Assembly: GCF_053078305.1 (NCBI RefSeq)
Contig: NZ_CP166879.1
Reading direction: 5' to 3' (one strand)
DNA: 64,000 bases
Position numbers and translations under genes: made by a program
Notes under the pieces: generated by a model
The model's input: only the letters and a program-made list of their open reading frames with translations
What the model was told of the DNA's origin: nothing
Databases searched by the model: none
Part shown: positions 397-58,033 of the stretch, piece after piece
How positions within the stretch are numbered: position 1 is the first letter of the stretch
How the letters are laid out: each line of letters starts with the position of its first letter

Positions 397-1017
397 GTGG
401 AAATTTACGAGAACGAAAACGACCAGGTAGAAGCGGTTAAACGCTTTTTTGCTGAAAATGGCAAAGCACTGGCTGTTGGGGTGATTTTGGGCGTTGGCGC
501 ACTGATTGGCTGGCGCTACTGGAACAGCCATCAGGTTGATTCTGCACGCTCCGCTTCTCTTGCCTATCAAAATGCGGTTACCGCAGTGAGCGAAGGCAAA
601 CCGGATAGCATCCCGGCGGCGGAAAAATTTGCTGCTGAAAATAAAAATACTTATGGTGCGCTGGCTTCTTTGGAACTTGCGCAGCAATTTGTTGACAAAA
701 ATGAACTAGAGAAAGCTGCCGCCCAGTTACAACAGGGGCTGGCAGACACGAGCGATGAAAATCTCAAAGCCGTGATAAATCTGCGTCTTGCTCGCGTTCA
801 GGTACAGCTCAAGCAGGCTGATGCCGCGCTGAAAACCCTTGATACCATCAAAGGTGAAGGGTGGGCTGCCATTGTTGCCGACCTGCGTGGTGAAGCATTG
901 CTGAGCAAAGGTGATAAGCAAGGTGCGCGTAGTGCATGGGAAGCAGGCGTGAAAAGCGATGTTACTCCGGCACTGAGCGAAATGATGCAGATGAAAATTA
1001 ATAATTTGTCCATCTGA
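397..1017 (+). CDS. yfgM: YfgM, inner-membrane ancillary SecYEG translocon subunit (TPR-like)
   Basis: 206 aa ORF with GTG start at 397, N-terminal TM helix, sequence recognised as YfgM; GGAG RBS upstream. Confidence 0.92.
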   Translation: MEIYENENDQVEAVKRFFAENGKALAVGVILGVGALIGWRYWNSHQVDSARSASLAYQNAVTAVSEGKPDSIPAAEKFAAENKNTYGALASLELAQQFVDKNELEKAAAQLQQGLADTSDENLKAVINLRLARVQVQLKQADAALKTLDTIKGEGWAAIVADLRGEALLSKGDKQGARSAWEAGVKSDVTPALSEMMQMKINNLSI

Positions 1018-2206: not shown

Positions 2207-2227
2207 TCGTCTCTGTCGTTCACTTTG

Positions 2228-2264: not shown

Positions 2265-2323
2265 AACAACGACGCGAATATAGCGTGCGTTGTCTGATGA
2301 TTTATAAAAATGAGGCTTTAAAC

Positions 2324-3796
2324 ATGGTACCTGTGGTCGCGCTTGTCGGGCGCCCTAACGTAGGAAAATCCACGTTATTTAACCGTCTAACTCGCACCCG
2401 AGATGCGCTGGTTGCGGATTTCCCGGGTCTGACTCGTGACCGTAAGTACGGTCGTGCGGAAATTGAAGGCCGTGAGTTTATCTGTATTGATACCGGCGGG
2501 ATTGATGGCACAGAAGACGGTGTAGAAACCCGCATGGCGGAACAGTCGCTGCTGGCGATTGAAGAAGCGGACGTCGTACTGTTTATGGTGGATGCGCGCG
2601 CGGGCCTGATGCCGGCAGATGAAGCGATTGCCAAACATCTGCGCTCCCGTGAAAAACCGACCTTCCTGGTGGCAAACAAAACTGACGGTCTGGATCCCGA
2701 TCAGGCAGTGGTTGATTTCTACTCGCTTGGTTTAGGTGAAATCTACCCGATCGCCGCGTCTCACGGTCGTGGCGTATTAAGTCTGCTGGAGCATGTGCTA
2801 CTGCCGTGGATGGAAGATCTCGCACCGCAAGAGGAAGTCGACGAAGACGCTGAATACTGGGCGCAATTTGAAGCGGAAGAGAACGGCGAAGAAGAAGAGG
2901 AAGACGACTTCGACCCGCAAAGTCTGCCGATCAAACTGGCGATTGTGGGTCGTCCGAACGTAGGTAAGTCTACACTCACTAACCGTATTCTTGGTGAAGA
3001 GCGCGTTGTTGTTTATGACATGCCTGGTACGACGCGTGACAGTATCTACATTCCAATGGAACGCGATGGACGTGAGTATGTGCTCATTGACACCGCTGGC
3101 GTACGTAAACGCGGCAAAATCACCGATGCTGTAGAGAAATTCTCCGTAATCAAAACGTTGCAGGCCATTGAAGACGCCAACGTGGTGATGTTAGTGATTG
3201 ATGCGCGCGAAGGTATTTCCGATCAGGATCTCTCGCTGCTGGGCTTTATTCTCAATAGTGGGCGCTCACTTGTCATTGTGGTGAATAAGTGGGATGGCCT
3301 GAGTCAGGAAGTGAAAGAGCAGGTGAAAGAAACGCTGGACTTCCGTCTGGGCTTTATCGATTTTGCTCGTGTGCACTTTATCTCTGCCTTGCACGGCAGT
3401 GGTGTTGGTAACTTGTTTGAATCAGTACGTGAAGCGTATGACAGCTCCACCCGTCGTGTGGGGACCTCTATGCTGACGCGCATCATGACGATGGCTGTTG
3501 AAGATCACCAACCGCCGCTGGTACGCGGTCGTCGTGTGAAGCTGAAATATGCACACGCCGGTGGTTATAATCCGCCGATTGTGGTGATTCACGGTAATCA
3601 GGTGAAAGACCTGCCTGATTCCTACAAGCGTTACTTGATGAACTACTTCCGCAAATCGCTGGACGTAATGGGATCGCCGATTCGTATTCAGTTCAAAGAA
3701 GGGGAAAACCCGTATGCGAACAAGCGTAACACCCTGACGCCAACCCAGATGCGTAAACGTAAGCGTCTGATGAAGCACATCAAGAAAAATAAATAA
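2324..3796 (+). CDS. der: Der/EngA, ribosome-associated double GTPase
   Basis: Two P-loops (GRPNVGKS twice), KH-like C-terminus; true ATG at 2324 (track ORF begins at an upstream in-frame codon, 2285). Confidence 0.95.
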
Positions 3797-3864
3797 TTAT
3801 CCGTAAGTATTTTATCTGCCATTCCCTCTATGAATGTAGAGGGGTGGCTACCGGAGGAATTCAT

Positions 3865-5477
<1,613 letters not shown>

Positions 5478-13241: not shown

Positions 13242-13760
13242 TTAGCTCTTTTCAGGACATTTGGTATTTGGCTGAATACGCGTTTCGTTATACGTCGTGG
13301 TAATAACAACGGCTAAACCTGTCGTAAACTGGCACTCTTTACCCACCTGAGTAGAGGTATACACTTTGGTGCCTTCCTTATACGTTAAAGAAACACCTTC
13401 CACTAAGGTTTTATCATTCACCATAGAACCCGCTGCCGCGCCTACAGCTCCGCCGCCAACTGCACCTGCCGTCGTTCCGGAATTGCTGCCAGACCCGACG
13501 TTGTGGCCGATAACACCGCCAGCGACTGCGCCAATAAGCGCGCCGAAGGCTTGTGCGTTCCGTTTATTTTGGGAGTTGTCTACGGCAACTTTTGCGGGAA
13601 GAATGGAAATAATATTAACGGTTTTAGTTTCTTGTTTGGTATTCAGTTGATCGGTTTGATAAACATCGGCGGCATGATCGTCAGCATTTGACTGGCATCC
13701 TGCCAGAGTGAATGACGCTAACATTGCCACAGGCAGAAGACATTTTTTAAATTTCATCAC
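13242..13760 (-). CDS. yfgH: YfgH, glycine-zipper outer-membrane lipoprotein
   Basis: Lipobox LAGCQ, Gly-rich GALIGAVAGGVIGHNVGSG segment; start may be the ATG at 13757 rather than the GTG at 13760. Confidence 0.9.
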   Translation of the reverse strand: MMKFKKCLLPVAMLASFTLAGCQSNADDHAADVYQTDQLNTKQETKTVNIISILPAKVAVDNSQNKRNAQAFGALIGAVAGGVIGHNVGSGSNSGTTAGAVGGGAVGAAAGSMVNDKTLVEGVSLTYKEGTKVYTSTQVGKECQFTTGLAVVITTTYNETRIQPNTKCPEKS

Positions 13761-14059: not shown

Positions 14060-14251
14060 CTAACGTTGTACCGGTGATTCGACGGAGAGTGTGGATTGCT
14101 GAGCTTCTTTTTTGCTCTGATGGTGCTGCCAGGCACCGACGGACGAGTAGATAAAACGGCCAAAGAAGAAGATAAAGCTGATGAGCAGTACGATACGGGT
14201 CATGCGACTGTTAAATCGGTGTCGTTTTCGCATACTGGTTGCCTGACTCAC
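14060..14251 (-). CDS. yfgG: YfgG, small membrane protein
   Basis: 63 aa from GTG (57 aa from the internal ATG at 14233), one hydrophobic helix; recognised as YfgG. Confidence 0.7.
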   Translation of the reverse strand: MSQATSMRKRHRFNSRMTRIVLLISFIFFFGRFIYSSVGAWQHHQSKKEAQQSTLSVESPVQR

Positions 14252-21306: not shown

Positions 21307-22361
<1,055 letters not shown>

Positions 22362-24763: not shown

Positions 24764-25465
24764 CTGAACACACCGGCACAGCTCTCTTTGCCACTTTATC
24801 TTCCTGACGACGAAACCTTTGCAAGTTTCTGGCCGGGGGATAACTCCTCTTTACTGGCCGCGCTGCAAAACGTGCTGCGTCAGGAACATAGCGGTTACAT
24901 CTATCTCTGGGCACGCGAAGGCGCGGGGCGCAGCCATCTGCTGCACGCGGCTTGCGCGGAATTGTCGCAGCGTGGCGATGCGGTGGGCTATGTCCCGCTG
25001 GATAAACGCACCTGGTTTGTTCCGGAAGTGCTCGACGGTATGGAGCATTTGTCGCTGGTCTGTATCGACAACATTGAGTGTATTGCAGGCGATGAGTTGT
25101 GGGAGATGGCGATTTTCGATCTCTACAATCGAATTCTGGAATCGGGCAAAACACGGTTGTTGATCACCGGCGATCGTCCACCGCGGCAGTTGAATCTGGG
25201 ATTACCGGATCTCGCGTCGCGACTCGACTGGGGGCAGATCTACAAATTGCAGCCACTTTCTGATGAAGATAAGTTGCAGGCGCTACAGTTACGCGCGCGT
25301 TTGCGTGGTTTTGAACTGCCGGAAGATGTGGGGCGTTTCTTGCTGAAGCGGCTCGACAGAGAAATGCGCACGCTATTTATGACGTTGGATCAGTTGGATC
25401 GTGCGTCGATTACCGCGCAACGTAAATTGACCATTCCGTTTGTGAAAGAAATTCTGAAGTTGTAG
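24764..25465 (+). CDS. hda: Hda, DnaA-inactivating AAA+ protein (RIDA), CUG start
   Basis: Product begins at [21 protein letters not shown]... with no in-frame ATG; the codon before NTPAQ is CTG (24764..24766); Walker A GAGRSHLL. Confidence 0.85.
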
Positions 25466-28757: not shown

Positions 28758-29606
28758 TCAGGATTCCTGACGTAAATAAATAGCCCGATAACAAATACTC
28801 ACCAGCACTGCACCGCCGATAATATTACCCAGCATCACCGGGAGCAGATTGGCGGTAATAAAATGGCTGACCGTCAGTGCAGGAAAATTGTCTGCGCTAC
28901 TGTGCGCCAGTTGCCAGAAGGGGCGTGGGGCAAAATGGCGAATGGCAATGGCGAACGGAATCACAAACAAATTGGCGATACAGTGCTCAAAGCCACTGGC
29001 GACAAACAGGGTGATGGGCAAAATCATGGCGACGATTTTGTCGCATAACGAACGCCCGCAATAACTCATCCACAGCGCCAGGCAAACCATCAGATTGCAC
29101 ATAATGCCGAGGCTGACAGATTCAGTAAATGTATGATGCATTTTGCCCTCGGCGCAGTGTAAAACCGCGACTCCCCACATCGCGTTTTCACTCATCACCA
29201 GCCCGGAAAACCAGATTAACAAACTGAAACAGGCAATACCTGCCAGATTACCGCAGGCCACCAGAAGTGCGTTAATCAGCCAAGTTCGCCAACTAATAAC
29301 GCCCCGACTTTTTGCCATCACCGTCATTACCGACGAGGTGAACAGGCTGGTGCCACAAACCGCCAGCAAAATAAAGCCGAGTGTAAAGCAAAGGCCGCCC
29401 ACCAGATGGGTTAATGCCTGTGAAGACGGGGCATCGGCGATAACGGAAAGGTAAAAAGTAAATCCAATCGCCATAAACACGCCAGCGGACATCGCCATTA
29501 AAAAGACCGATACATTGCTGCGGGCAATTTTATGGGCAGCAATCCGTTCAGCGATTGCCGCTTTTCTGGCGCTCAACTGCAAGTCGAAAGAGAGTTTATT
29601 TCTCAT
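28758..29606 (-). CDS. focB: formate channel FocB (FNT family)
   Basis: 282 aa polytopic FNT-family sequence; last gene of the hyf cluster. Confidence 0.92.
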   Translation of the reverse strand: MRNKLSFDLQLSARKAAIAERIAAHKIARSNVSVFLMAMSAGVFMAIGFTFYLSVIADAPSSQALTHLVGGLCFTLGFILLAVCGTSLFTSSVMTVMAKSRGVISWRTWLINALLVACGNLAGIACFSLLIWFSGLVMSENAMWGVAVLHCAEGKMHHTFTESVSLGIMCNLMVCLALWMSYCGRSLCDKIVAMILPITLFVASGFEHCIANLFVIPFAIAIRHFAPRPFWQLAHSSADNFPALTVSHFITANLLPVMLGNIIGGAVLVSICYRAIYLRQES

Positions 29607-29627
29607 GCATACTCCTGCAAAAACAGA

Positions 29628-31640
29628 TTACAACACCTCGCGAACCGAGATCCCCAGACGCTGCATTCGTGACAGCAGCGTGGTGCGCTTCATCCCTAAT
29701 CGTGTCGCCGCGCCACGGGGCCCGGCAACAATGCCATTGGTTTCTCGCAATACCTGAACAATGCGCTGACGTTCTTCTTCGTCATTCTCTGGCGTCGTCG
29801 GGTGCAGCAACTGCGCCATTGAACTGCGAAGCGCTGAATCTTCATTTAGCGTCGGCAGTAAACGGCTTTGTCGGACATTAAGATGTAAATTCAGACTGTT
29901 ACCGCGAGTCAGCAGTACCGCTCGCTCAATCACGTTTTCCAGCTCGCGCACGTTGCCCGGCCAGTCCCACGACATCAACTGGCGTAGCGCCTCGGTTGGG
30001 ATGGCGTCAATTGCGCGATTCATATGGCGCGCCATTTTTTGCGTGAAATGTTTTGCTAAAAGAGGGATATCTTCCGGACGGTCGCGTAGCGGCGGCAATT
30101 CCAGTGGGAAGACATTCAGGCGATAAAAGAGATCGCTGCGAAACTGGCGATCTTCAACCATTTGCCACAAATCACGGTTGGTGGCGGCAATGACTCTGAC
30201 ATTCACCGGGATCGTTCTACTCCCGCCGAGACGCTCAATCTCCCGCTCCTGCAATACGCGCAGCAATTTAGGCTGAAGTTCTAACGGCAGATCGCCAATT
30301 TCATCGAGAAACAACGTGCCGCCATCGGCAATTTCAAAACGACCACGATGGGTATTAATCGCACCAGTAAACGCCCCTTTGTCATGACCGAATAACTCAC
30401 TTTCCAGAAGACTGGCGGGGATGGCAGCGCAGTTGATTTTGACCAGCGGTTTGTCGCGTCGCGGGCTAAGTTGATGGATCGCTCTGGCGATCACCTCTTT
30501 GCCGGTTCCGGTTTCACCGCAAATCAACACCGTACTGTCGCTCTTCGCCACAATATCTACCTGCTGGAGCAGGTCTTCCATTGCCTGGCTTTGATAGATA
30601 ATGTCACCGACGCCCAGATTCGAAAGGAGCTGCTCGCTAAGCTGGTGGTTTTCTTGCTGCAAACTTTCCTGCAAATCGGTCATGCTACGCCAGGCATCGG
30701 CATTGCCAACGGCAATAGCGATGCGATCGGCTATGTGTTGTAGTAGCTGGCAGTTTTCCTCACTAAAGAGAGTGGAAGAGGTATGCGCCAGCAACAATGC
30801 ACCCGGTGTATGGTTGCCAAAGGTAAGCGGTATCAGGAGCGCAGATTCGCAGCCGTTAGATGCAAGTAAGTGTAATAATGGGTCGCGTTGCCAGAGAAAC
30901 AGATCGTCTGCACGGTGCGTCAAGGTCGGTTGTCGGGTTTGTAGCGTTTGTGTCAGCAATACACTGTCGCCAGGCATATTGCGTGGCAGACACGCACAAT
31001 GTGAGGCAGAAAGATCGCTGCACCACAGGCTGAACTTCTCGTTCTTTCGATGATCGCCCAGTACCATACTGACTGAAGCCAGACCGAAAAAATGATGGAT
31101 CTCACGGGCGACGTCAGCGATCAGATCGTCGAGATCAAGATGTGACAGCACTGCATTAGTGATATCCACCAGTACCCGATGATGATCGCGATCTTTCTCC
31201 AGCAAACGCAGCGCCACCTGTTGTTCTTCATCATTGAGCCATGATTGCAGAACCGGGGTGATAATGCGTGCCAGCCAGTTAAACAGTGTGCAATCCTGGG
31301 GAGTAAAACGGCTGCCGTGGGTACGAATAAAGCGTAGCTCCGCCATTCCACTACTGCCGAGAAGGACGGCGTGACGCGAATAATCGACCATCTCGCCCTG
31401 ATACTCTACTGTTGCCGTCACATCGCTGCCATCATCATGGTAGCGGTAATAGAAGTTGCTTTTGAGAACATGCAGTTCAATAAGTTGTACCGGGCTGAAC
31501 GGCGGCGGCAGCGGGATGAAGGCGCGTAATAAAGACGCCTTGCCGTGTTTCTGCGCTAACCGCTCCGCGAGCATTCCGTTTACCGCTTCAATTGTTATTC
31601 CTTGCGGCGGGGCAAACATCGCCTCGTCTGACATAGCCAT
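29628..31640 (-). CDS. hyfR: HyfR, sigma54-dependent transcriptional activator (FhlA-like)
   Basis: GAF N-terminus, AAA+ sigma54-interaction domain ([14 protein letters not shown]), C-terminal HTH; ATG at 31640 chosen (track ORF begins at TTG 31643; another ATG at 31634). Confidence 0.9.
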
Positions 31641-31669
31641 CAACAGTCCTTATTAATGAGAAATCCTTC

Positions 31670-32083
31670 TCACGCAATTTTTCTGGCCATCAGATAGATG
31701 GCCGGTTCCAGCACAATTTCATCCAACAGATGAATGAATTGAATGCTACGCGCCTGCCACGCCGACGTCGCGTCATCTGCCAGTGGCGCGAATGCCCGGG
31801 TCAACAGGGCGGTGTGGCTGGCGTCAATAACAATCTCACCAAAGGTCATCACCCCCAGCATCTTACGTCGGGCTTGCTTCTCTTCGACCTGTGCAAGCCA
31901 ATCTTCGTATTCCGTCTGTGGGCAGCGGAAGGCGACATTCAGACAATCAATCACGCCAACGTGATGACCGATAGCCAACGAGTAATACATTACCTGGGAG
32001 CTGTGTTCCGGCATCTCGTCGCTACTGGCGATAAATTTTTTTCGCAGCGTCCAGAAAACAATTTCCCCGCACTCTTCAGTCAT
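31670..32083 (-). CDS. hyfJ: HyfJ (HycH-like hydrogenase maturation/assembly protein)
   Basis: 137 aa from ATG 32083 ([13 protein letters not shown]...); overlaps the hyfI stop by 8 nt. Confidence 0.88.
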
Positions 32084-32834
32084 GTAACCCCCGGAGTACG
32101 CGAAAGAGTTGCTGAACGATACTATTGAGACGTGGATCGTCGGCATCGCGCAACCAGGTGTTAACCCGATTTCCTGTAGGATCGTCGCTTAAATGGCGCA
32201 GGAGCCGATCGCAAATTTCTCGCCCCTGACGATAGCCCGCCAGCCGCCGCGCTTCTCGCTCAATGGCGATACGCTGTGATGGCGGGATCTGCGGCCACAA
32301 CGGTTGCATAGTCACCCCGGTGGGATCGCGATAATCCACAGCGTGAATCTTCTGTTGCAGCAAACCGAGCGCCACGGCGAAACCGTGAATGGTGGCGGCC
32401 GGTGTTGGCGGGCAGCCGGGGATCCAAACATCAATGGGGACAATGGTGTCGCTGCCGCCCCAGACGCTGTAGAGATCGTGGAAAATACCGCCGCCGACAC
32501 CGCACGCGCCGTAGGAAACACAAATTTTATTATCGGGGGCAGACTCATACGCCCGAAGTGCAGGCATACGCATCGCCCGGGTGACTGCGCCAGTAAATAA
32601 CAAAATATCGGCGTGACGCGGTGATGAAACAACCTTAATGCCAAAACGTTCTGCGTCGAATACTGGTGTGATGGCGGCAAAAATTTCGATTTCACAGGCG
32701 TTGCAGCCGCCGCAATCGACGCGATAAACGTAGGCTGAGCGACGGATATCCTGTAGCAAATGCCGCTTCATCTTTTGCGTTTGCTCGTCCAGCGTGATGG
32801 GCTGGCTGACATGTTGTGTAAGCACTGGACTCAT
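32076..32834 (-). CDS. hyfI: hydrogenase-4 small subunit (HycG/NuoB-like)
   Basis: 252 aa with NuoB-type cysteine ligands (CGGCNAC ... CPGCPP). Confidence 0.93.
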
Positions 32835-33376
32835 AGCTGCTCCTTAGCCACCAGCGGTACATCTGTATCGTCGTTGATCAGCGTCGCGCGTTGTTTGCAC
32901 TCCGGGCAGACGCTCGCTTGCGCCCGCAACATTTCGCGGTTTTGTGGCGCATTTTGTTGCTGTGCCAACAATTCAGCAGCCAGTGCGACGGTTTTTTGCG
33001 GGGCAAACGGGCGTTCGCAACGGCTGCAACGTTGTAGATGGAACGTCGCGCGGGTATAGAGATCGGCTTTATTGGTGACGGTCAGTTCAAAGTTATTGGT
33101 AAGCTGAATGGCTCTGGTCGGGCACACTTCTTCACAACGTCCGCAGTAAATACAACGCCCCAGATAGAGCTGCCAGGTGCGCGAATTTTGCTGGTCGTCG
33201 GTCTGGATAGTCAGCGCATTTGCCGGACAAGCACAGGCGCAGGCACCACAGGCAATACATTGGCTGGGCATCAGGTCCGGTTTCCCGCGAAAGCCTGGGC
33301 TGACCTCCAGTGGCGCGAAGGGATATTTCACCGTCGCGGTTCCGGCGCGCATAATAGTTTTCAGTAACTTCAGCAT
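32831..33376 (-). CDS. hyfH: hydrogenase-4 Fe-S subunit (HycF/NuoI-like, 2x[4Fe-4S])
   Basis: 181 aa with CxxCxxCxxxCP ferredoxin motifs. Confidence 0.93.
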
Positions 33377-33385
33377 CTTCTGTCC

Positions 33386-35101
33386 TTACTTCAGCGGCGA
33401 ACGGTTACGATCAATGCCGTAGCGTTCGATCTCTTTATACGGCACGGTTTTTGACTGGCGCTTGCGCACATCAACCAGCGTCACACGGTCGGTACAGGAG
33501 TAGCAGGGATCAAGGCTACCGATAATCAGCGGTGCGTCAGAAACGGTATTGCCGCGTAGCATGTAACGCAGCACCGGCCAGTTGGCGTAGGTGGCGGCAC
33601 GACAGCGCCAGCGGAACAATTTTTGATTATCACCGAGCATGCTCCAGTGCACGTCTTCACCGCGTGGCGCTTCAACAAAGCCCAGCGCGAATGCGTGAGG
33701 TTTATAGCTAAAGCCTTCGGTCAGCAGTGGGGTATCCGGCATGTTGTCGAGAGCAAATTCCAGCATTGCCAGCGAATCAAACGTCTCTTTGACACGGACC
33801 ATCACGCGGGAGAAAACATCGCCGCCGGTGAAGGTAAACAGTGTTTTTGGAATATTGCCGTAGTCGGCATAGGGGTGATCAAAGCGCAAATCACGGGCAA
33901 AACCACTGCCGCGGATCAGCGGCCCTACATGGCTATATTCACGGGCGATTTGTCGGTCGAGAATGCCAATGCCCTGAGTGCGTTGTTCCATATTCGGCGT
34001 AGCAAGCAGCATCTCTACCAGCTCCGACACGTCGGCGCGCATCTCGCGCACCAGTTTCAGCGTTTGCAGACGTTGCTCTTTGAGAATATCGCGGCGAACA
34101 CCACCAATCAGATTCAGACCGTAGGTTTTACGCGACCCGGTCAGCAATTCCGCCATCGTCATCGACTTTTCCCGCACGCGGAAAAATTGCATAAAGCCGG
34201 TATCAAAACCAACAAAATGGCAGGAGAGGCCAAGATTGAGCAAATGACTGTGTAGCCGTTCGACTTCCAGCAGAATCGAGCGAATGGTATGCGCTCGTTG
34301 CGGCACCTCAATCCCCAGTGCATTTTCAACCGAGTTGGTATAGGCCACACTGTGGGCAAAACCGCAAATCCCACACACGCGGTCCGATAAGAAGGTCACT
34401 TCGTTGTAGCCCATCCGCGTTTCTGCCAGTTTCTCCATGCCGCGATGGACATAAAACAGACGGTAATCAGCATCGACAATTTGCTCGCCATCCACAAACA
34501 AGCGGAAGTGACCCGGTTCATCGGAGGTGATATGCAGCGGGCCGACAGGGATCACCCGCGCATCGCTGTTGCCCTCATTGATAAACGGATACGTTTCGGA
34601 ATCAGTCGTCGGTTCAGGGCGCAGTCGATAATCCATCGCATCTTTGCGCAGCGGATGCATATCTTCCGGCCAGTCATCGGGCAACACCAGGCGACGCTGA
34701 TCCGGCAGGCCAACCGGAATCAGCCCGTACATATCGCGAATTTCTCGCTCGCCCCAGACCGCGGCAGGGACGCGCGGTGTGACTGACGGAAACTCCCGAC
34801 TGTCGGCATCGACCAGCGCCTTCACCACAATCCAGCATTTTTCGGCCCCTTCCATTGAAAGGGCATAATAAACCGCGTAATGACCGTTAAGTGTCCGCTC
34901 GTCGTTGCCAAACAGGACCGGAAGCCAGCCATCATGTTGATAATAAAGATACTGTACAACGTCAGGCAGCAGATTGATTTTCACCGTAATGGTGACCTGT
35001 TCAGGCGTTTGTCGCTCTTCATCCAGCACCGCGCCGGGGAACTGCGTTTTCAGGGCGGCGAGAATCGCTTCGCCACGATTTGACGATGAATTAACGTTCA
35101 C
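33386..35101 (-). CDS. hyfG: hydrogenase-4 large [NiFe] subunit (HycE/NuoCD-like)
   Basis: [12 protein letters not shown]-terminal Ni-ligand motif and [10 protein letters not shown]-terminal motif; no in-frame ATG near the N-terminus, so GTG at 35101 proposed (overlaps the hyfF 3' end); exact start uncertain. Confidence 0.85.
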
Positions 35102-36671
35102 TGTGTTTCTCCGAAACAGATGCGGTGCCTGAAGGCAAAAAATCATGCCAGGTGCTACGTTGTGCAGGCAGATCGTGCGTCCCTGAGAGGACTATAGTGG
35201 AAGCGCCCGCCAGGATCCTGATGACAGGTTGTGGAATATGCGTTCCCATCGCCAGCATCATGACCAGCAGAATCACCATTGGCGAGGTGGTCAACCAGCC
35301 GAGATCACCCCGGTTAACGGCCTGCGGCGGTTTCGCCATTAACACCCGCGCAGCCATCCGTACCAGGCCCGCCAGCACCAGCGTTAACAGCAATAACAGC
35401 AGGACGATAATCAGCAGGTGATTACGTGCCAGTCCGGCGGTAACGGTCATAAATTCGCTAAGAAAAATGTTGAAGGGCGGCATCCCTGCCAGCGCCAGCG
35501 CACCGCCGCCAAACAGCACGGCGGTAAATGGCATGATTTTGAGCATCCCACAGACGACGTTGAGATCGCGCGTGCCGTACTTGAGCAGTACATTGCCGGA
35601 ACCGCAGAACAGCAGCGTTTTTGCCAGACTGTGGTTTAAGGTGTGCAGCAGCGCGGCAAAAATTCCCAGCGGCCCGCCAATGCCTAGCGCCACCGCGACC
35701 AGTCCCATGTTCTCCACGCTGGAGTACGCCAGCAGACGCTTAATGTCCCGCTGTACCAGAATGAAAAATGCCGCCACGGCAACCGACAACATGCCGAAGA
35801 TGAGCAACAACCGGTTGGGGAAATCGCTGCCGATGGCCTGGCAAATAATGATGTAATAGCGAATCAGCACCAACAGCGCGCAGTTCAGCAATACGGCGGA
35901 GAGTAGGGCGCTGACCGGACTCGGCGCTTCACTGTGAGCATCCGGCAGCCAGGCGTGCATGGGAAATAGCCCGGTTTTGGTACCAAAGCCAATTAGCACA
36001 AACACAAAGGCCAACAGCATTAATGTTGGATCAAGCAAGGACGATTGCTTAAGAACCTCGCTCCAGAATATCGCCATTTCTGCCTGCGGCATAAAGCTGG
36101 CGGCGTTGGCGTATACCAGCACGGTACCGAACAGACCAAAAGCGACACCAACAGTACAAATAATGATGTACTTCCATGCTGCTTCCAGCGATGAACGCTG
36201 ACCGTAAATGCCTACCAGAAACGCCGAGCTTAAGGTGGTGGCTTCGATCGCCGCCCACATCACAATCAGGTTATTGCTGGTAACAACCAGCAGCATGGTG
36301 AACAAAAACAGATGGAAGAAACCGTAGTAATCGCACAGCGTAACGGGTGAAAGCTCGCCGTGTGCCACTTCATGACGCATGTAGCCAATCGAGTAAACAC
36401 CGGTGAGAAAGCCAATCACACCAAGAATGGCGAGGAACAAACCGCCCAGACCATCAATATGAAGCCACAGTCCCGCAGCGAATATTTCTCCTGCATCAGC
36501 GGCAGTTTGGACCACCCAGAGTGCCAGAATCAGCAGCAGTGTGATCCCTAAGCTATGTAATACGGTCACCGTGCGAGTCGCAGAGAGCCTCCGTTTCCGG
36601 CAGGCAAAACAGAGCAGCGAAAAAAGCAGCGGCGTGAGCAGGAGTAAAGCGAACATCACAGAATAACTCAT
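35091..36671 (-). CDS. hyfF: hydrogenase-4 membrane subunit (NuoL/M/N antiporter-like)
   Basis: 526 aa polytopic, NuoM/N-like. Confidence 0.92.
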
Positions 36672-36675
36672 CTCA

Positions 36676-37326
36676 TTATCCCTTCAGCGCGGTCAAGTTG
36701 TTCACGTCCAGCGTGCCGTGGGTACGCCATATTTTTCTTGCCAGTAACACCATCACAATGACGGCGAAGATGGCGTCGGTAGCGATACCAATTTCCACCA
36801 GTTCCGGTGCACGCCAGGCTAGAAGCGCCAGCACCAGATGGGAGCCGTTTTCCATCAGGCAGTAACCAAAAATTTGCCGCAGGATATTGCGCTGGCTAAC
36901 AATGCACAGCAGGCCAAGCAGAAAATGACCTAACGCCACCGCCAGCGCAGGTTTCAGCCCGGTAGCCATCGGTAGCTTCACGGGCTGAACGACAAATGCG
37001 CAAAGCAGGACAATTAACGCCGCGAGCAGTGCCATCATTGCCGGACCGAATAACGCTTTTTCCGGGATGTTCTGGGGAATATTTCGTGCAGCGTAAGTCA
37101 TGATTAACGGTACCAGCAGCACTTTGGTGATAAAGGCGCTGGCGGACCAGATCAGCAGTTGCTCTGCGGCGAACAGGCACGAGAGGGTGGCGAAAATAGA
37201 CACCAGCACCAGTGACTGGCAGGCGTAAAATCCGCATGACAGGCGATAGCTTTTGACGCTAATCACAAACAGCGATGTCAGCATCATCAGTCCCGCCAGA
37301 TTATTTACGATCATAGAACCGGTCAT
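36676..37326 (-). CDS. hyfE: hydrogenase-4 membrane subunit HyfE
   Basis: 216 aa hydrophobic protein. Confidence 0.9.
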
Positions 37327-37337
37327 TCATCATCTCC

Positions 37338-38777
37338 TTACTGCAACCAGGTCGCGGCGATTACGCTGGAAATCAGCGACATCACAATCAGTACAATCAG
37401 CACCAGGCGCATTGACCCTGGCAGCGGTGCGGCATCGGCGACGGCCTCGCTCGGTTTGCCGGGGACGACGCGACCAAACCAGCGAATAAACCAGGCGAAA
37501 CTGGCGACCGATTCAATCATCAGCAGAATCATGGCGGGCAGCAGGATCCAGTACTCCACTGACAACGCAAAACCGGCAGCAAACAGCGGGAATTTACTGA
37601 AGAAGCCGTTGAACGGCGGTACGCCGGTAATCGCCAGCGCTGCCACGCAGAAACCCACGCCTGGCAACGGCAGGGTGTGCAATACGCCACGCAGACGCGG
37701 CAACAAGCGCGTGCCGCAGCTGTAACTCAGCGCACCTGCTACAAGGAAAAACAGGCTTTTAGCGAACGCGTGGTTGACGATGTAGGCGATGCTGCCCTCC
37801 AGCGCCAGCCGCGAGCCGAAGATGGAGAGCGACAAGCCGAAGAACATCCAGCCAAGTTGAGTGATGGTCGACCAGGCCAGCAACCGCTTCATATCCTGCT
37901 GTGGCAAATACATCAGAAATCCATAAAGAATGGTGACCAGCGCCATGACCATGCCAACGCCGCCAATCACATGCGGGATATTGCCGCCGTCGATAATGGC
38001 GCGGGCAAAAATGTAAACGCCCACTTTCACCATCGATGCGGCGTGGAGATAGGCGCTGATCGGTGTTGGCGCTTCCATTGCGTCCGGTAGCCACGCTTGC
38101 ATCGGTAGCTGGGCCGATTTCCCCCACGCGGCAAACAGGATGCCGCCATAAACCAGATAACGTGCGTCGCCGTGTAACTCGCTCATCGCGCTAAGCGCAA
38201 ACGTTCCGGTCTGCAAAAACAGCGTGGCGGCGGCAAGATACAACCCCAACGAACCGATATGGGTGATAAGCAACGCTTTTAGTGCTGAACGCTGCGCTTT
38301 ATCGCTCTGGTAATAACTGATCAACGCCCAGGAGCAGCCGCCCGTAATTTCAAAAAACAACAACTGACCGAGCAGCGTCGAGGAGAGTACCAGTCCCGCC
38401 ATCGCGCCGATAAACAACAGCAAAAATGCGTAATAACGATTCGTGCCGTTATGCGGGTGTTCGCGATTTTTATCCGTCAGATAACCCGTGGAGTAGATCG
38501 TGACCAGCAAACCGAGAAACACCACCACAAACAGAATCAGCGTACTCACGCGATCAATGAGCAGGCCAAACAACGCCACATCCCCCACGTTGACCAACGT
38601 CAACGTGACGGCAACTTTATCGGCCTGATAAAACGCGGAGATCAGTGACAACATGCACAGCGTGGTCAGCGCGGCGAACAAAACCCCCCATTCGGCGGCC
38701 CGACGTTGTGGCGAAAACGAAACGACCAGTGCGCCGATAAAAGGCAGCAATAACGTCGTCAGAGCAAGATTTTCCAT
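37338..38777 (-). CDS. hyfD: hydrogenase-4 membrane subunit (NuoM/N antiporter-like)
   Basis: 479 aa polytopic. Confidence 0.92.
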   Translation of the reverse strand: MENLALTTLLLPFIGALVVSFSPQRRAAEWGVLFAALTTLCMLSLISAFYQADKVAVTLTLVNVGDVALFGLLIDRVSTLILFVVVFLGLLVTIYSTGYLTDKNREHPHNGTNRYYAFLLLFIGAMAGLVLSSTLLGQLLFFEITGGCSWALISYYQSDKAQRSALKALLITHIGSLGLYLAAATLFLQTGTFALSAMSELHGDARYLVYGGILFAAWGKSAQLPMQAWLPDAMEAPTPISAYLHAASMVKVGVYIFARAIIDGGNIPHVIGGVGMVMALVTILYGFLMYLPQQDMKRLLAWSTITQLGWMFFGLSLSIFGSRLALEGSIAYIVNHAFAKSLFFLVAGALSYSCGTRLLPRLRGVLHTLPLPGVGFCVAALAITGVPPFNGFFSKFPLFAAGFALSVEYWILLPAMILLMIESVASFAWFIRWFGRVVPGKPSEAVADAAPLPGSMRLVLIVLIVMSLISSVIAATWLQ

Positions 38778-38793
38778 ATTCCGTCAGTGCTCC

Positions 38794-39741
38794 TTACAGA
38801 CCGGTTAACCAGAAGACCCATGCAAGCGCAGCAAGGCTGAAGCCAAGCCAGGTCACATGGTGAATGAGTAAAAAACGCCCGCGTGCCAGCGTGTTTTCTG
38901 CGATAGAGGCCAGAACAAAAATCAGCAAAACCTTGAGCAGCGTAACGACAAGTGAAGTCAGCAGGCAGGCGAGAGAAAGCTCTTGCGCGCGCCCAAAGGG
39001 CAGAAACAGGGCCACAAACAGTGCTGCCATCACGACCTGTTTCAGCCCCAGCCCCCATTTCGCCAGCGCCAGCCCGGCACCGGAATATTCGGTCAGCGGG
39101 CCTTCCTGTAATTCCTGTTCTGCTTCAGCAACATCAAAGGGAATTTTTCCCATCTCAATGAAGCAGGCAAAACCACAGGCCAGTAACGCCAGGACGGTGG
39201 TTAGCGGCGAGTTCCAGCCCGTTGCCAGCGTATTGCTGATCATCTCGATATGCGTGGAACCTGCTATCAGCGCCAATACCAGCAGTGAGAGAATGAGCAT
39301 GGGTTCGACCAGAATGCCGAGCGTCAACTCGCGACTGGCACCGACCCCCGCAAACGGGCTTCCGGTATCCAGCCCGGAAAGAGCAAAGAAAAAACGAAAC
39401 AGGGCAAGAAGATAGATAAGGGTGATCAGATCGCCGCCGCCCGCAAAAGGGGAAACGGTAATAAATAGTGGTAGGGCCATCGCCAGCACCAGCATGCTAC
39501 TGATTAATACCCACGGCATCAGGCGGAACATCAGACCTGAAGATGTCGGCGCAACTTCCTGCCGTTTAAACAGTTTGTGGATATCGCGATAATCCTGCCA
39601 GATCCCCGGTCCGCGGCGGGAGTGCATTCGCGCGCGTATCTGCCGGGAAATACCCGTAAAAAGTGGGGTTAGCATCAGCAGAATCACGGCCTGTGCTAAC
39701 GCAAAAATGACCAGATATCCGTCGCAAAGAGTTTGTCTCAT
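38794..39741 (-). CDS. hyfC: hydrogenase-4 membrane subunit (HycD/NuoH-like)
   Basis: 315 aa from ATG 39741 (MRQTLCDGYLVIF...) with AAGGAA RBS; track ORF is N-extended into hyfB. Confidence 0.9.
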   Translation of the reverse strand: MRQTLCDGYLVIFALAQAVILLMLTPLFTGISRQIRARMHSRRGPGIWQDYRDIHKLFKRQEVAPTSSGLMFRLMPWVLISSMLVLAMALPLFITVSPFAGGGDLITLIYLLALFRFFFALSGLDTGSPFAGVGASRELTLGILVEPMLILSLLVLALIAGSTHIEMISNTLATGWNSPLTTVLALLACGFACFIEMGKIPFDVAEAEQELQEGPLTEYSGAGLALAKWGLGLKQVVMAALFVALFLPFGRAQELSLACLLTSLVVTLLKVLLIFVLASIAENTLARGRFLLIHHVTWLGFSLAALAWVFWLTGL

Positions 39742-39751
39742 GGTGATTTCC

Positions 39752-41770
39752 TTAGACGGCAATAGCGATTAGCAGCACAACCAGTGCGGCGACCACATAC
39801 AGGCAATAGAGACGAAAGTCGCCGCTTTGCAGATGCTGTATTTCTTTGGCCAGCCGTTGGGTGGCGCTCACGATGGGGCGGATCACCCGCTCATCCCAGA
39901 AGGGTTCTGTGCTCTGAGCTCTGGCGGTGACGTGCGCAAGACCTTTATTTAGCCTCAGCGTAGGGTCGAGCTGTTGTCGTAGACGAAATAACGCAGAGAA
40001 GACCACACGCAGCGGCTGCATCACGCCATTGCCTGACGGAGCCATCGCGTTTTCCCAGCTGTAGCCGCATGCCCAGGCATCTCCTGTGCGACGAAACGCT
40101 GCGCGGCGCGAACGACACCACAGCCAGTAAAGGCCAGGCAGTAAAGGCATCGCCAGTAGTAACAGCAACAGTAATGAGGGAGTGACCCGTGTATGAAACG
40201 TGCCGGGTACAAGTGCTATTCCGCTGGCGACAGTGACGGGAGGGGTATTGGTAAAGGCATGGGCAATATGCATTATCTTCGGTGCCAGCCAACTGGCACT
40301 AAGCGCAATTAATACGCAGAGTGCCGCGAGCAGTAGCATGGCGACGATCATCGTATTTGGCACTTCCTGTGCCTCTTCAGCGTGTGTACTGCGCGGCGCA
40401 CCACAGAAAGTAATACCGTACATTTTGACGAAGCACATTACTGCCAGCCCACCAGTGACTGCCAGCATCACCATAGCAATAGGACCCGCAAGTTGTAGCG
40501 CTACGGCTTCCACACGACTTAGTGAGAACAGCGACTGCCAGGTGTACCATTCGCTGATAAAACCATTCAGCGGAGGAAGGGCTGATATCGCGAGGCAACC
40601 AATCAGGCATGCTGCGGCTGTCCACGGCATCCGTTTCGCCAGTGCCCCCATTTTTTCCATGTCGTGGGTATGCAAACGCGAAATAATCGCGCCCGCGCCG
40701 AGAAATAGCAGCCCTTTGAACAGCGCATGGTTGAGCAGATGAAACAGTGCGCCGAGCAGTCCAACCACGGTGAGCAGCGGGTCGTGCAGTGACAGACCGA
40801 CCATCGCCACACCGACTGCCAGCAAAATAATGCCGACGTTTTCGACGGTACTCCAGGCCAGCAGCCGTTTGATATCCTGTTCCGCCAGCGCATACAGCAC
40901 GCCCAGGAGCGCGGAGATTGCGCCGATCGCCATCACCAGAATGCCCCACCACAGAGGCAAACCCGTTTGCGCCAGCAGATCCATCGCTACTTTCAGGATG
41001 CCGAAAATACCGATTTTGACCATTACACCAGACATCAACGCCGAAGCGTGCGATGGTGCGGCAGGGTGAGCGCGCGGCAACCAGCTGTGCAACGGCATCA
41101 TCCCGGCTTTCGCGCCAAAACCGAAAAAGGCCAGCAGGAACACCGCCGACGCCAGCCCCGGAGAAAGTGAAAGCGTGCGGAAACTGGCAAAATCGAGGCT
41201 GCCGCTTTCGCGCCCCATCAGCAAGAAGGCGATCATTATCAGCACCGATCCGGCGTGGGCGATAAAAAAGTAGAGCATGCCAGCGTTGATCGACGTTTTA
41301 TCCTGCCTGGCAATGACCAGAAACCAGGAAGACAGCGACATCATTTCAAACAGCACGATGAACCAAAAAGCGTTGTCCATCACCAGCAGGGCAACCATCG
41401 ATGCGATGAAAATATTCATAAAGAAGCCCATCGCCGCCGCGCCTTTGCCCTCGTATTCGCGCATATAAGTCAATGAATAGAGCGAACAAACCACCACCAG
41501 CAAGGAGATAACCAGCACCATAAATGCCGAGAGGCTATCCATTCGCAGGGTTAAATCGGCAAAGTCAAAAGGGGTGGCAAAACGGGCGACTAAAGTTACG
41601 CCTGCATGTAATTGCGTAATTCCGCTGATGATGCCAATCACGCCGCCCACCAGCGATGTGATGCCGGAAAGCTTAATAGCCAGTCTGTCCAGACCGAGTA
41701 AAAACAGCGAAGCCAGACTGGCAAACAGATAGAGGATCAGCGACCAGGTTAATAATTGCAGGGCATCCAT
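39752..41770 (-). CDS. hyfB: hydrogenase-4 membrane subunit (NuoL-like)
   Basis: 672 aa polytopic; start ATG overlaps the hyfA stop (TAATG). Confidence 0.93.
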   Translation of the reverse strand: MDALQLLTWSLILYLFASLASLFLLGLDRLAIKLSGITSLVGGVIGIISGITQLHAGVTLVARFATPFDFADLTLRMDSLSAFMVLVISLLVVVCSLYSLTYMREYEGKGAAAMGFFMNIFIASMVALLVMDNAFWFIVLFEMMSLSSWFLVIARQDKTSINAGMLYFFIAHAGSVLIMIAFLLMGRESGSLDFASFRTLSLSPGLASAVFLLAFFGFGAKAGMMPLHSWLPRAHPAAPSHASALMSGVMVKIGIFGILKVAMDLLAQTGLPLWWGILVMAIGAISALLGVLYALAEQDIKRLLAWSTVENVGIILLAVGVAMVGLSLHDPLLTVVGLLGALFHLLNHALFKGLLFLGAGAIISRLHTHDMEKMGALAKRMPWTAAACLIGCLAISALPPLNGFISEWYTWQSLFSLSRVEAVALQLAGPIAMVMLAVTGGLAVMCFVKMYGITFCGAPRSTHAEEAQEVPNTMIVAMLLLAALCVLIALSASWLAPKIMHIAHAFTNTPPVTVASGIALVPGTFHTRVTPSLLLLLLLAMPLLPGLYWLWCRSRRAAFRRTGDAWACGYSWENAMAPSGNGVMQPLRVVFSALFRLRQQLDPTLRLNKGLAHVTARAQSTEPFWDERVIRPIVSATQRLAKEIQHLQSGDFRLYCLYVVAALVVLLIAIAV

Positions 41771-42387
41771 TAGCGTTGCTCCTGAGTGAGGGAAAGGGGA
41801 TCCTCCCCGCCATTGGCAAACCAGCTTGCGGCAAGGCGCTGTTTTTCTTTCATCTGACGTTGCAGGCTATCGCCGGTGATCAGCCGTAACGCCTGATTCG
41901 GGCAAGCGCGAACGCAGGCCGGACCTTCTGGCAAGAAATCACACAGGTCGCATTTCACCGCGACGGTCTGGACACCCGGTTCCCAGCGCAGCAAAGCATG
42001 TTGTGTTTGCGCGTTTTCTTCGCCGTCTTTGAGTGAGCCCTCAGCCTGAAAAACATATTGCGCAGGGGCATTCACCGGACGGCTTCCTGAAGCGCTGATT
42101 GCGCCAAATGGGCAGACCACGGCGCAAAGCTTGCAGCCAATACAGAGGCTTTCGTTGAGTTGGATCGCATCATCCCTCTGGGAGATGGCATTGACCGGGC
42201 AGACCTGCAGGCAAGGGGCTTCCTCACAGTGATGACACACGACAGGGGCAGTGAGTGTTGACGTCTTCGCCAGGGCCAGGCGCGGGTGTTGCTGTAAACC
42301 TTGCGTTTTATGCACGTCCGAACAGGCAGCGAGACAGGTATTACATCCTGTACACCACAGTGGTTCGGCCACCACAAAGCGGTTCAT
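41770..42387 (-). CDS. hyfA: hydrogenase-4 ferredoxin-type Fe-S subunit (HycB-like)
   Basis: 205 aa from ATG 42387 (MNRFVVAEPLWCTGCNTC...), four Cys clusters. Confidence 0.92.
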   Translation of the reverse strand: MNRFVVAEPLWCTGCNTCLAACSDVHKTQGLQQHPRLALAKTSTLTAPVVCHHCEEAPCLQVCPVNAISQRDDAIQLNESLCIGCKLCAVVCPFGAISASGSRPVNAPAQYVFQAEGSLKDGEENAQTQHALLRWEPGVQTVAVKCDLCDFLPEGPACVRACPNQALRLITGDSLQRQMKEKQRLAASWFANGGEDPLSLTQEQR

Positions 42388-42428
42388 GTCGGCTCCTTGA
42401 AAATGATATGAAACATTGCATTTCATAA

Positions 42429-43110: not shown

Positions 43111-43682
43111 TACTTAACTCCATCCTGTTCATCATGTTGGGAATAATTGACGACGTTAATACTGCCTTGTGCATTGAGTTCTGTACATAGGGCTTTGAAC
43201 GCTTGCTCAATATTTGCTGCGTCCGCAGATGCGGGGCTGTGGGCAGTAATCTGAATATGCAACTGCGCAGCCCGTTCATTTTCAGCAGGTTGCGTGCGCG
43301 ACACCAGCTCCGCAATGTTCATATGATGCGCGTCGAAAAGTGCTGTGAAGCGTTCAATTAAATGCGGGGAGTCTGCCACATCGACCTGAACCCAGACAGA
43401 TGCTGGCATTGGCGGACGCGGACGCGCCGTCGTGCGCTTCATCACGATTAAAAGATCCAGTTCGGCACCTTTCAACGGTAACGTTGATTCAATCAGAGTA
43501 ATGGCATTCCATGAACCGGAAAGCAGCATGATAAACGTGAACTCTTCTCCCAGCATCGCCAGGCGACTGTCTTCAATATTACAGCCGCAACTACTGACAT
43601 GACGGGTGATGGTGTTCACAATTCCAGGGCGATCGGCACCCAACGCAGTGATCACCAGATAATGTTGCGATGACAGTGTCAA
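43110..43682 (-). CDS. gcvR: glycine cleavage system transcriptional repressor GcvR (ACT domains)
   Basis: 190 aa from TTG at 43682 (TLSSQHYLVITALGADRPGIV...), AGGA RBS 9 nt upstream; stop overlaps the bcp start (TAATG). Confidence 0.85.
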   Translation of the reverse strand: MTLSSQHYLVITALGADRPGIVNTITRHVSSCGCNIEDSRLAMLGEEFTFIMLLSGSWNAITLIESTLPLKGAELDLLIVMKRTTARPRPPMPASVWVQVDVADSPHLIERFTALFDAHHMNIAELVSRTQPAENERAAQLHIQITAHSPASADAANIEQAFKALCTELNAQGSINVVNYSQHDEQDGVK

Positions 43683-43827
43683 ACTGGTTATTCCTTTAAG
43701 GGGTGAGTTGTTCTTAAGGAAAGCATAAAAAAAACATGCATACAACAATCAGAACGGTTCTGTCTGCTTGCTTTTAATGCCATACCAAACGTACCATTGA
43801 GACACTTGTTTGCACAGAGGATGGCCC

Positions 43828-44706
43828 ATGTTCACGGGAAGTATTGTCGCGATTGTTACTCCGATGGATGAAAAAGGTAATGTCTGTCGGGCTAGCTTGA
43901 AAAAACTGATTGATTATCATGTCGCCAGCGGTACTTCGGCGATCGTTTCTGTTGGCACCACTGGCGAGTCCGCTACCTTAAATCATGACGAACATGCTGA
44001 TGTGGTGATGATGACGCTGGAGCTGGCTGACGGGCGCATTCCGGTGATTGCCGGGACCGGTGCTAACGCTACTGCGGAAGCCATTAGCCTGACGCAGCGC
44101 TTCAATGACAGTGGTATCGTCGGCTGCCTGACGGTAACCCCTTACTACAATCGTCCGTCGCAAGAAGGTTTGTATCAGCATTTCAAAGCCATCGCTGAGC
44201 ATACTGACCTGCCGCAAATTCTGTATAATGTGCCGTCCCGTACTGGCTGCGATCTGCTCCCGGAAACGGTGGGCCGTCTGGCGAAAGTAAAAAATATTAT
44301 CGGAATCAAAGAGGCAACAGGGAACTTAACGCGTGTAAACCAGATCAAAGAGCTGGTTTCAGATGATTTTGTTCTGCTGAGCGGCGATGATGCGAGCGCG
44401 CTGGACTTCATGCAATTAGGCGGTCATGGGGTTATTTCCGTTACGGCTAACGTCGCAGCGCGTGATATGGCCCAGATGTGCAAACTGGCAGCAGAAGGGC
44501 ATTTTGCCGAGGCACGCGTTATTAATCAGCGTCTGATGCCATTACACAACAAACTATTTGTCGAACCCAATCCAATCCCGGTGAAATGGGCATGTAAGGA
44601 ACTGGGTCTTGTGGCGACCGATACGCTGCGCCTGCCAATGACACCAATCACCGACAGTGGTCGTGAGACGGTCAGAGCGGCGCTTAAGCATGCCGGTTTG
44701 CTGTAA
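43828..44706 (+). CDS. dapA: 4-hydroxy-tetrahydrodipicolinate synthase
   Basis: 292 aa from ATG 43828 ([19 protein letters not shown]...). Confidence 0.96.
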
Positions 44707-56127: not shown

Positions 56128-57828
56128 TTACATCAACTGACTTTCCTCACCCTCCGCAGAGCGAAAGCTAATACTCACTAACGTGCCGCCGCCGGAAGGT
56201 TGTGAAAAAGTCAGCGTCCCACCTAGCCGTTCCGCGCGTTCGCGCATGATATTCAGACCATAATGACCTTCGGGTTCTTTCGGTTCACCGATACCAATCC
56301 CGTTATCACGGATATAAACCGTGTGATTGCCGTCCGGCGCGGTGACGCAACTGACGGCGATTTCGCTGGCGTTGGCGTGCTTCATCGCATTCAGCACCGC
56401 TTCGCGAATAATTTGCAACAAATGCACCTGCATTTGCGCATCCAGTGCCAGGGTTGGCAGACGGCAGTCGAGGGTCAGTTTGGCGCTGGTTTGATTTTGT
56501 AACGTATCCAGCATTTCCCTCAACGCGGAGGGGAGATCCGCCTGCTGCAGCGTCAGGCGGAAAGTAGTCAACAGCTCGCGTAACTGCCGATAAGCATCAT
56601 TCAACGCCTGGGAAAAATCGGCCATGATACTTTGTGCGGTGGCGTTATCTTCCGGTATCGAACGCTTCAGTAACGTCAACTGGATACGTAAGTAAGAAAG
56701 TACCTGAGCCAGCGAGTCGTGCAATTCGCGGGCGATGGTTGCACGTTCTTCCATCAACAATAACTGCTGAAAATGCTTCTGCGCCTGATTAAAGTACAAA
56801 CCGCGTCCCAGCATCGACGAAACGCTGTTAAGCAGCGGTTCTGATGATGAAACGTGACTATTTTGCCAGTGCAGTTCGCCGTAAACCGTCTCTTGCATTG
56901 TCACCGGTAAAATCTGCATCGGCAATTCCGGGTTTGGTTGCCCTTCGCTAATCCGCCAGTTTTCACCGACATTTAACTCCAGATATTCAGCCGCTTCATT
57001 GTCGCGAACAATCTGCAAAATATGGCGGAAACAATGCACATCAATCTGGCTGGTGTTCAGCGCCTGCGAACATTGATACAACACCTCCAGACGACGCTTG
57101 GCCTCGTGGAGATCGCGGGTCTTTTCTTCTACTGACGCCTCCAGCGAACGGTACAATTTATGTAGCTCGCTCGACATCTGGTTAAAGGTTTTTGCAAGCA
57201 GGCCAAGCTCATTCGGCAGGCTGGTATCCAGCGGTGGCGAGTCGAACTGTCCGTGTTCAATACGCTGACTGGCGGTAACCAGCTGATTCAGCGGGGCAAC
57301 CACCTGATGGCGTATGCGGCGCAAAGTAAAAAAGACCAGCGTGAAAATACCGATGCCGCCAGCCAGGGAAATCGCCACCACCAGCAGCATTTTGCGTTCA
57401 GCGTAGTGCTGTAAAGCCAGCACGAACAGGTCTATCTGATTAACATAATTATTAATATTGGCCTGATACCACGGCAAATCGCCCTTGCTGAGCCGATTAT
57501 TCATCTCCAGCCAGTTGGCATTCAGATGCGCATAGCGAGTTTTTACTGCTTCTGGCACATACCAGACGTTGAGATTGGTTAATACCGGTGAATGCAGTGC
57601 CTGCTGAAATAACTGGCGATGTGCATTGAGTTGTGGACTGCCACTTTGCAAGTCGTAGCCCAGGCGGTAACTCTGCATACGCAGCGATCCGGCAATATTG
57701 ATAGCCTCAGCGTCGCGCAAACTGCTCGCCAGAGTTAGCAGAGCGATACCCGTGGAAAGAATCGACAGCAGCACAATGTAAAAAAAGGCCCGGGCCAGAC
57801 TGGCCGAGACGGGTCGTTTAACAATCAC
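56128..57828 (-). CDS. narQ: nitrate/nitrite sensor histidine kinase NarQ
   Basis: 566 aa from GTG at 57828 (VIVKRPVSASLARAFFYIV...); P-box, HAMP and HisKA_3 histidine; track ORF begins at an upstream GTG (57843). Confidence 0.92.
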   Translation of the reverse strand: MIVKRPVSASLARAFFYIVLLSILSTGIALLTLASSLRDAEAINIAGSLRMQSYRLGYDLQSGSPQLNAHRQLFQQALHSPVLTNLNVWYVPEAVKTRYAHLNANWLEMNNRLSKGDLPWYQANINNYVNQIDLFVLALQHYAERKMLLVVAISLAGGIGIFTLVFFTLRRIRHQVVAPLNQLVTASQRIEHGQFDSPPLDTSLPNELGLLAKTFNQMSSELHKLYRSLEASVEEKTRDLHEAKRRLEVLYQCSQALNTSQIDVHCFRHILQIVRDNEAAEYLELNVGENWRISEGQPNPELPMQILPVTMQETVYGELHWQNSHVSSSEPLLNSVSSMLGRGLYFNQAQKHFQQLLLMEERATIARELHDSLAQVLSYLRIQLTLLKRSIPEDNATAQSIMADFSQALNDAYRQLRELLTTFRLTLQQADLPSALREMLDTLQNQTSAKLTLDCRLPTLALDAQMQVHLLQIIREAVLNAMKHANASEIAVSCVTAPDGNHTVYIRDNGIGIGEPKEPEGHYGLNIMRERAERLGGTLTFSQPSGGGTLVSISFRSAEGEESQLM

Positions 57829-58033
57829 ACGCGTCTTCTCCACAAAAAATCATTAATGTTCCAGTTCGCTGAAACGCAATTTAGTCAGTGATGGGATTAT
57901 TTGATCTGCCACAGTTTATAGCGAAATAGTTACTTATTCTGGGCACATGAACATTGCCGATTCCCCTGTAAGTCGGGTAATAACAACACTCATATAAAGA
58001 ATAAGGTTTTTACAACCAAAAAAGAAGGTCGTT

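Follow-up and report, generated by a model that had tools for sequence, protein, structure and literature searches.

GTG and TTG initiation codons of gcvR, purM, narQ, yfgM and hyfG in a 64-kb stretch of the Escherichia coli chromosome

The genes gcvR, purM, narQ, yfgM and hyfG very probably all begin at the non-ATG codons that a first-pass annotation had assigned to them, i.e. TTG for gcvR and GTG for the remaining four, and as initiation codons they are of the common near-cognate kind, in genes that are well known. The DNA analysed (the window) comprises 64,000 nucleotides of contig NZ_CP166879.1 (RefSeq assembly GCF_053078305.1). It is E. coli chromosome in reverse orientation to MG1655 and matches approximately 2,579,560-2,639,680 of that genome with 98.5-99.0% identity. 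A 4-kb probe around the gcvR start, with bamC, dapA, gcvR, bcp and hyfA as the features beneath the match, finds matches in 5,425 of 5,426 complete E. coli genomes. Collinearity with MG1655 and matching annotation identify the five genes, and all five starts are the curated starts of MG1655, codon type included (gcvR, b2479, at 2599906 of NC_000913; purM, b2499; narQ, b2469, at 2585731; yfgM, b2513; hyfG, b2487, at 2608487). The five starts are already known, as all of them stand in the reference annotation. MG1655 (NC_000913.3, EcoGene/RefSeq) is another strain, without an insertion of approximately 4 kb between guaA and yfgI and with a hyfG that is internally 16 codons shorter, but it possesses the same five genes with the same start codons. 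The PGAP starts of NZ_CP048605.1 agree for gcvR, purM, narQ and hyfG (the fetched stretch excludes yfgM); PGAP calls, like most ortholog gene calls, depend on K-12 curation. Across species, start position and start codon are conserved and the upstream frame is not in gcvR (79 of 79 loci), purM (25 of 25), hyfG (12 of 12 sequences) and narQ (6 of 6 species). The positions and strands given in the first-pass annotation therefore stand on the sequence itself, on the MG1655 mapping and on the Shine-Dalgarno (SD) motifs, and for these four genes also on the cross-species comparison.

For the five genes, all in-frame ATG, GTG and TTG codons between the preceding stop and codon +40 were enumerated, and SD strength was expressed as the pairing of the anti-SD of the 16S rRNA with the 20 bases that precede each codon (dG, kcal/mol). 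The claimed starts have values between -5.5 and -8.8 kcal/mol, and each of them beats every in-frame rival (Table 1). SD complementarity is present approximately 5-10 nt upstream in all five genes, and all five possess a GTG or TTG in frame before the conserved N-terminus with no better-placed ATG. According to the candidate listing, gcvR, purM, narQ and yfgM contain no in-frame ATG from the preceding stop to the conserved N-terminus. The statement that no well-placed in-frame ATG exists is correct as worded, though it passes over the upstream GTG of narQ and, in hyfG, an ATG at 35146, which lacks an SD, is unconserved and is rejected here.

Table 1. Initiation codons, rejected candidates and associated features in the window (dG: anti-SD pairing, kcal/mol).
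Feature	Position	Strand	dG	Evidence or remark
gcvR initiation codon TTG	43680..43682	(-)	-5.6	sequence; identical to MG1655 b2479 start
gcvR SD core AAGGA	43692..43696	(-)	-5.6	9-nt spacer to TTG
gcvR CDS, 190 aa	43110..43682	(-)		annotation; homolog 1u8s
rejected gcvR TTG TTG (43748, 43745), longest-ORF start	43743..43748	(-)	0.0 (43748), +0.2 (43745)	without SD
purM initiation codon GTG, second of two in-frame GTGs	22341..22343	(-)	-5.5	MG1655 mapping, SD, peptides, Ribo-RET
rejected upstream in-frame purM GTG	22356..22358	(-)	-0.2	
purM CDS, 345 aa	21306..22343	(-)		MG1655 and PGAP annotation
narQ initiation codon GTG	57826..57828	(-)	-6.4	MG1655 mapping, SD, orthologs
rejected upstream in-frame narQ GTG	57841..57843	(-)	-3.3	weaker SD; E. 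coli-specific
narQ CDS, 566 aa	56128..57828	(-)		MG1655 and PGAP annotation
yfgM initiation codon GTG	397..399	(+)	-8.8	strongest of the five; single candidate, no rival from stop 343 to codon +28; SD; peptide
yfgM CDS, 206 aa	397..1017	(+)		MG1655 annotation
hyfG initiation codon GTG	35099..35101	(-)	-6.6	MG1655 mapping, SD, conservation
hyfF/hyfG overlap, 11 nt	35091..35101	(-)		hyfF stop TAA 35093-35091
rejected upstream in-frame hyfG ATG	35144..35146	(-)	-1.5	15 codons upstream
hyfG CDS, 571 aa	33386..35101	(-)		16 codons longer than in MG1655
hda initiation codon CTG	24764..24766	(+)		MG1655 mapping; conserved GAGGT SD
yfgG initiation codon GTG	14249..14251	(-)		MG1655 and PGAP annotation, candidate listing
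yfgH annotated start GTG	13758..13760	(-)		ATG 13757 directly follows; doubtful

The TTG at 43682 is almost certainly the start of gcvR. It is followed by ACA CTG TCA TCG CAA CAT TAT (TLSSQHY, the protein continuing as TLSSQHYLVIT), the N-terminus expected from it is (M)TLSSQHYLVITALGADRPGIVNTITR, and no in-frame ATG occurs within the next 40 codons downstream. A GcvR scan of species-representative genomes yielded 80 loci from approximately 25 enterobacterial genera, and all 79 usable loci have TTG opposite the first residue of GcvR. The frame in the window is open back to 43751 and the longest-ORF listing begins the gene at TTG 43748, with 212 instead of 190 aa; a true start at this codon, or at TTG 43745 with a product of 211 aa, is exceedingly improbable, however. 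Neither codon possesses an SD (dG 0.0 and +0.2), and 29 of the 79 loci contain an in-frame stop 7-11 codons upstream of the TTG without any ATG, GTG or TTG in between, which leaves the TTG as the sole possible start before the conserved ACT-domain N-terminus. Among 65 unique gcvR sequences, the five columns of AAGGA and the TTG are invariant; third-position variation and codon periodicity begin past the TTG, and the sequence farther upstream is poorly conserved and has no such periodicity. The distant GcvR homolog of Vibrio cholerae with a solved structure (1u8s) likewise lacks the N-terminal extension: its residue 4 aligns to residue 6 of the E. coli protein, hence the two N-termini are of similar length. 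The UUG start of gcvR was reportedly determined via N-terminal sequencing of a GcvR-LacZ fusion. A promoter and terminator scan at gcvR returned no sigma-70 consensus match in 43600-43900. The gcvR promoter is described as low-level and constitutive in Ghrist & Stauffer 1998 (J Bacteriol 180:1803).

The starts of purM at GTG 22343 and of yfgM at GTG 397 are both as good as certain. In TRAINSPOTTER Table S1 (PMC13245402), b2499 (purM) is represented by two N-terminal peptides, with and without iMet (TDKTSLSYK...), both assigned to the GTG at 2621197-2621199 with Ribo-RET support, and b2513 (yfgM) by the N-terminal peptide MEIYENENDQVEAVKR, assigned to the GTG at 2639281-2639283 with support from Ribo-RET, INRI-seq and REPARATION. 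The same table gives N-terminal Met peptides and Ribo-RET support for rpsT (TTG) and cra (GTG), which are near-cognate E. coli starts like the five and without mechanistic difference from them (PMC13245402). The purM survey, like that of hda, covered loci without hyf in which both genes fall within the fetched flanks, and the purM start is GTG in 25 of 25 such loci. Of the two in-frame GTGs of purM, 22358 and 22343, the second had been proposed as the start, and the peptide and Ribo-RET data and the loci compared bear this out.

In both purM and narQ of E. coli, the upstream GTG (22358 and 57843, respectively) is in frame with the next GTG and no stop lies between them, which would permit initiation at the first GTG or at both, the latter resulting in isoforms that differ by 5 residues. 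This is very improbable for either gene. For purM it is already refuted by the published peptides, which, as far as available, place the N-terminus at the second GTG only, and the first one is lost or blocked by a stop in several genera: loci L043 and L053 carry a stop one codon before the real start, which cuts off the upstream GTG, and no in-frame GTG is listed at the upstream position in L039, L067, L077 and L080. The first GTG of narQ overlaps the beginning of GGAG, the SD of the start at 57828, has the poorer anti-SD pairing of the two (dG -3.3 vs -6.4) and is missing in 5 of 5 other species.

The narQ comparison comprised six species, i.e. the window together with S. enterica, C. koseri, E. 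fergusonii, C. rodentium and Citrobacter sp. R56. The codon aligned to GTG 57828 is GTG in all six, and the position of the upstream GTG is occupied by GCG, TCG, AAG or CAG in the five species other than E. coli; C. koseri and R56 contain no alternative start candidate. In a homolog search, 118 of 120 NarQ ortholog gene calls begin at the residue of GTG 57828, and the NarQ domain set consists of PilJ, HAMP, HisKA_3 and HATPase_c. Alignment and SD pairing make GTG 57828 very likely the correct narQ start, as in the first-pass annotation, which did not mention the second, E. coli-only GTG at 57843. A separate observation concerns E. fergusonii, where an in-frame ATG lies two codons upstream of the conserved GTG (aaATGcgaGTG; locus L087, approximately 595-603) and is used by one deposited NarQ gene call, P0080 (MRVIVKRP...). 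NarQ of this species may thus be slightly longer.

Ribosome profiling and N-terminal peptides had been suggested as a check on all five starts. Published data of this kind confirm purM and yfgM, and neither an experimental N-terminus nor an initiation footprint of gcvR, narQ or hyfG is found among the TRAINSPOTTER matches listed or in the available INRI-seq supplements. At least three of the starts can be regarded as experimentally established, purM and yfgM from published work and gcvR from what is reported of earlier work. The alternative check, alignment to curated orthologues, returned the curated MG1655 start for each of the five genes and conservation across species for gcvR, purM, narQ and hyfG.

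Because these sources hold no experimental HyfG N-terminus, it was fair to rank the hyfG start as the least certain of the five. GTG 35101, which overlaps the end of hyfF as described, is nevertheless probably, and with good confidence, the correct start on the basis of the aligned sequences. The motif GGAGA-N6-GTG is invariant in 12 of 12 sequences (the window and 11 loci from four genera), an alignment in which hyfG of E. coli has 12 nt fewer immediately past GTGAA. HycE of the formate hydrogenlyase complex (7z0s) also supports this start: residue 4 of HycE aligns to residue 7 of HyfG, the N-terminus of HyfG being 3 residues longer. The competing candidate is ATG 35146 inside hyfF, the only ATG in the open hyfG frame and its longest-ORF start, from which HyfG would comprise 586 aa with GTG 35101 as an internal valine; the absence of a HyfG N-terminus from the available experimental sources leaves some room for it. 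This reading is very improbable all the same, as the ATG has no SD (dG -1.5 vs -6.6 for the GTG) and is not conserved, its position being GTG in three Citrobacter loci, ACG in a further one (L010) and unalignable in Kosakonia and Phytobacter. Furthermore, GGAGA-N6-GTG is the sole hyfG start candidate in loci L019 and L027-L029, and HycE has no counterpart of the extra 15 residues. GTG 35101 is therefore retained as the hyfG start.

Apart from its start, hyfG varies in length. It encodes 571 aa in the window and in the PGAP-annotated PapRG-06-5, and 555 aa in MG1655. The 16 codons missing from MG1655 correspond to window positions of approximately 33900-33947 (-), between two short GCCCGTGA direct repeats. 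Since HycE keeps a stretch homologous to these codons, K-12 appears to have an allele with an in-frame deletion, which affects the catalytic subunit of hydrogenase 4. Of 5426 E. coli genomes, 2025 contain the segment in full length; the other genomes may carry the deletion or lack hyf. Many related genomes (L003, L004, L006 and others), among them E. albertii and some representatives of Escherichia, lack the hyf-focB block (window 29600-42400), and where it is absent, hda and purM come to lie within about 7-10 kb of gcvR. The hyf genes, reportedly not expressed in standard growth conditions, adjoin bcp in only 11 of 80 loci.

Initiation at the five codons follows the standard near-cognate mode: an SD located 6-9 nt upstream positions the 30S subunit on the GUG or UUG, and the initiator fMet-tRNA reads this codon despite mispairing with its first base. 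As the codon is decoded by the initiator tRNA, the protein still starts with (f)Met; the published peptides of purM and yfgM, as far as available, show that these proteins begin with Met. Relative to AUG, the initiation rate of GUG and UUG is roughly 10-100%, hence the practical effect of such a codon is a lower translation rate that is fixed in the sequence. For gcvR, we infer that the invariant TTG, as a weak codon, plausibly holds the repressor GcvR at low amounts compared with GcvA, its partner.

Conservation of a start codon is not peculiar to the weak ones. The ATG starts of neighbouring genes, used as a control, are equally strict (dapA, 78 of 78; bcp, 79 of 79; bamC, 76 of 76; purC, 74 of 74), so that conservation of TTG or GTG validates the position of the start and does not in itself demonstrate special selection for a weak codon. 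The UUG of gcvR and the CUG of hda are never AUG in the enterobacterial loci sampled, though one substitution would suffice. Whether the weak codon itself, beyond the start position, is under purifying selection that fixes protein dosage in these two genes is a question on which we are evenly divided. If it is, start-codon identity would be a conserved dosage device for stoichiometric regulators (GcvR with GcvA; Hda with the clamp and DnaA). No new biology follows from the five start codons; their value is one of quality control, in that the earlier start calls prove reliable in this window and that the longest-ORF track overcalls N-termini.

The extent of this overcalling and the overall start codon usage were assessed with 51 CDS starts of MG1655 that lie inside the window and were transferred to its coordinates. 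In 23 of the 51 genes, the longest-ORF track begins farther upstream than the annotation (in gcvR, 212 vs 190 aa), which justifies the caution of the first-pass annotation that ORF-track starts often precede the real ones. The mapped annotation contains 43 ATG, 6 GTG, 1 TTG and 1 CTG start codons, i.e. 8 non-ATG starts in 51 genes (16%). An enrichment of non-ATG starts in the window was considered and rejected, as published genome-wide usage in E. coli is 83% AUG, 14% GUG and 3% UUG (approximately 17% non-AUG).

The list of genes with non-ATG starts was correct in its five members but incomplete, as it missed hda (CTG), yfgG (GTG) and yfgH (GTG). No start codon in the window is as unusual as the CTG of hda. 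It shares with the five starts a non-ATG codon and a strong SD, but CUG is a far weaker and rarer initiation codon than GUG or UUG and reaches 1-2% of AUG initiation. The hda start is CTG in 57 of 57 enterobacterial loci, with the GAGGT SD conserved, and it is described as the first chromosomal CTG start of E. coli (EcoGene 3.0, PMC3531124, with reference to Su'etsugu et al. 2008). The gene is absent from the TRAINSPOTTER matches listed and from the available INRI-seq supplements; yfgG and yfgH are absent from the INRI-seq supplements. In yfgH, an AAGGA motif is located 3 nt from the annotated GTG 13760 and 6 nt from ATG 13757. The annotated GTG is doubtful because this spacing favours the ATG, which may be the true start of the yfgH lipoprotein (MKFKKCLLP...), judging from its sequence context; the K-12 and PGAP calls may thus be one codon too long.

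Two further differences to other E. coli genomes were observed in the window. Positions 1-5447 display the K-12-like order yfgM-bamB-der-yfgJ-xseA in place of the sinH/sinI/adhesin island that adjoins xseA in NZ_CP048605.1, the closest genome by DNA identity (locus L083, 1-7864). The segment 8722-12683 (approximately 4 kb), inserted between guaA and yfgI, has no counterpart in MG1655. It contains two overlapping ORFs at 9106-10386 (+) and 10383-12335 (+), with products of 426 aa (GmrSD_N and DUF7834) and 650 aa (GmrSD_N and GmrSD_C). The best PADLOC matches of these two genes are the models HEC-06, Orf5 and SspE, and together the genes resemble an anti-phage or type IV restriction pair of the DUF262/GmrSD type.
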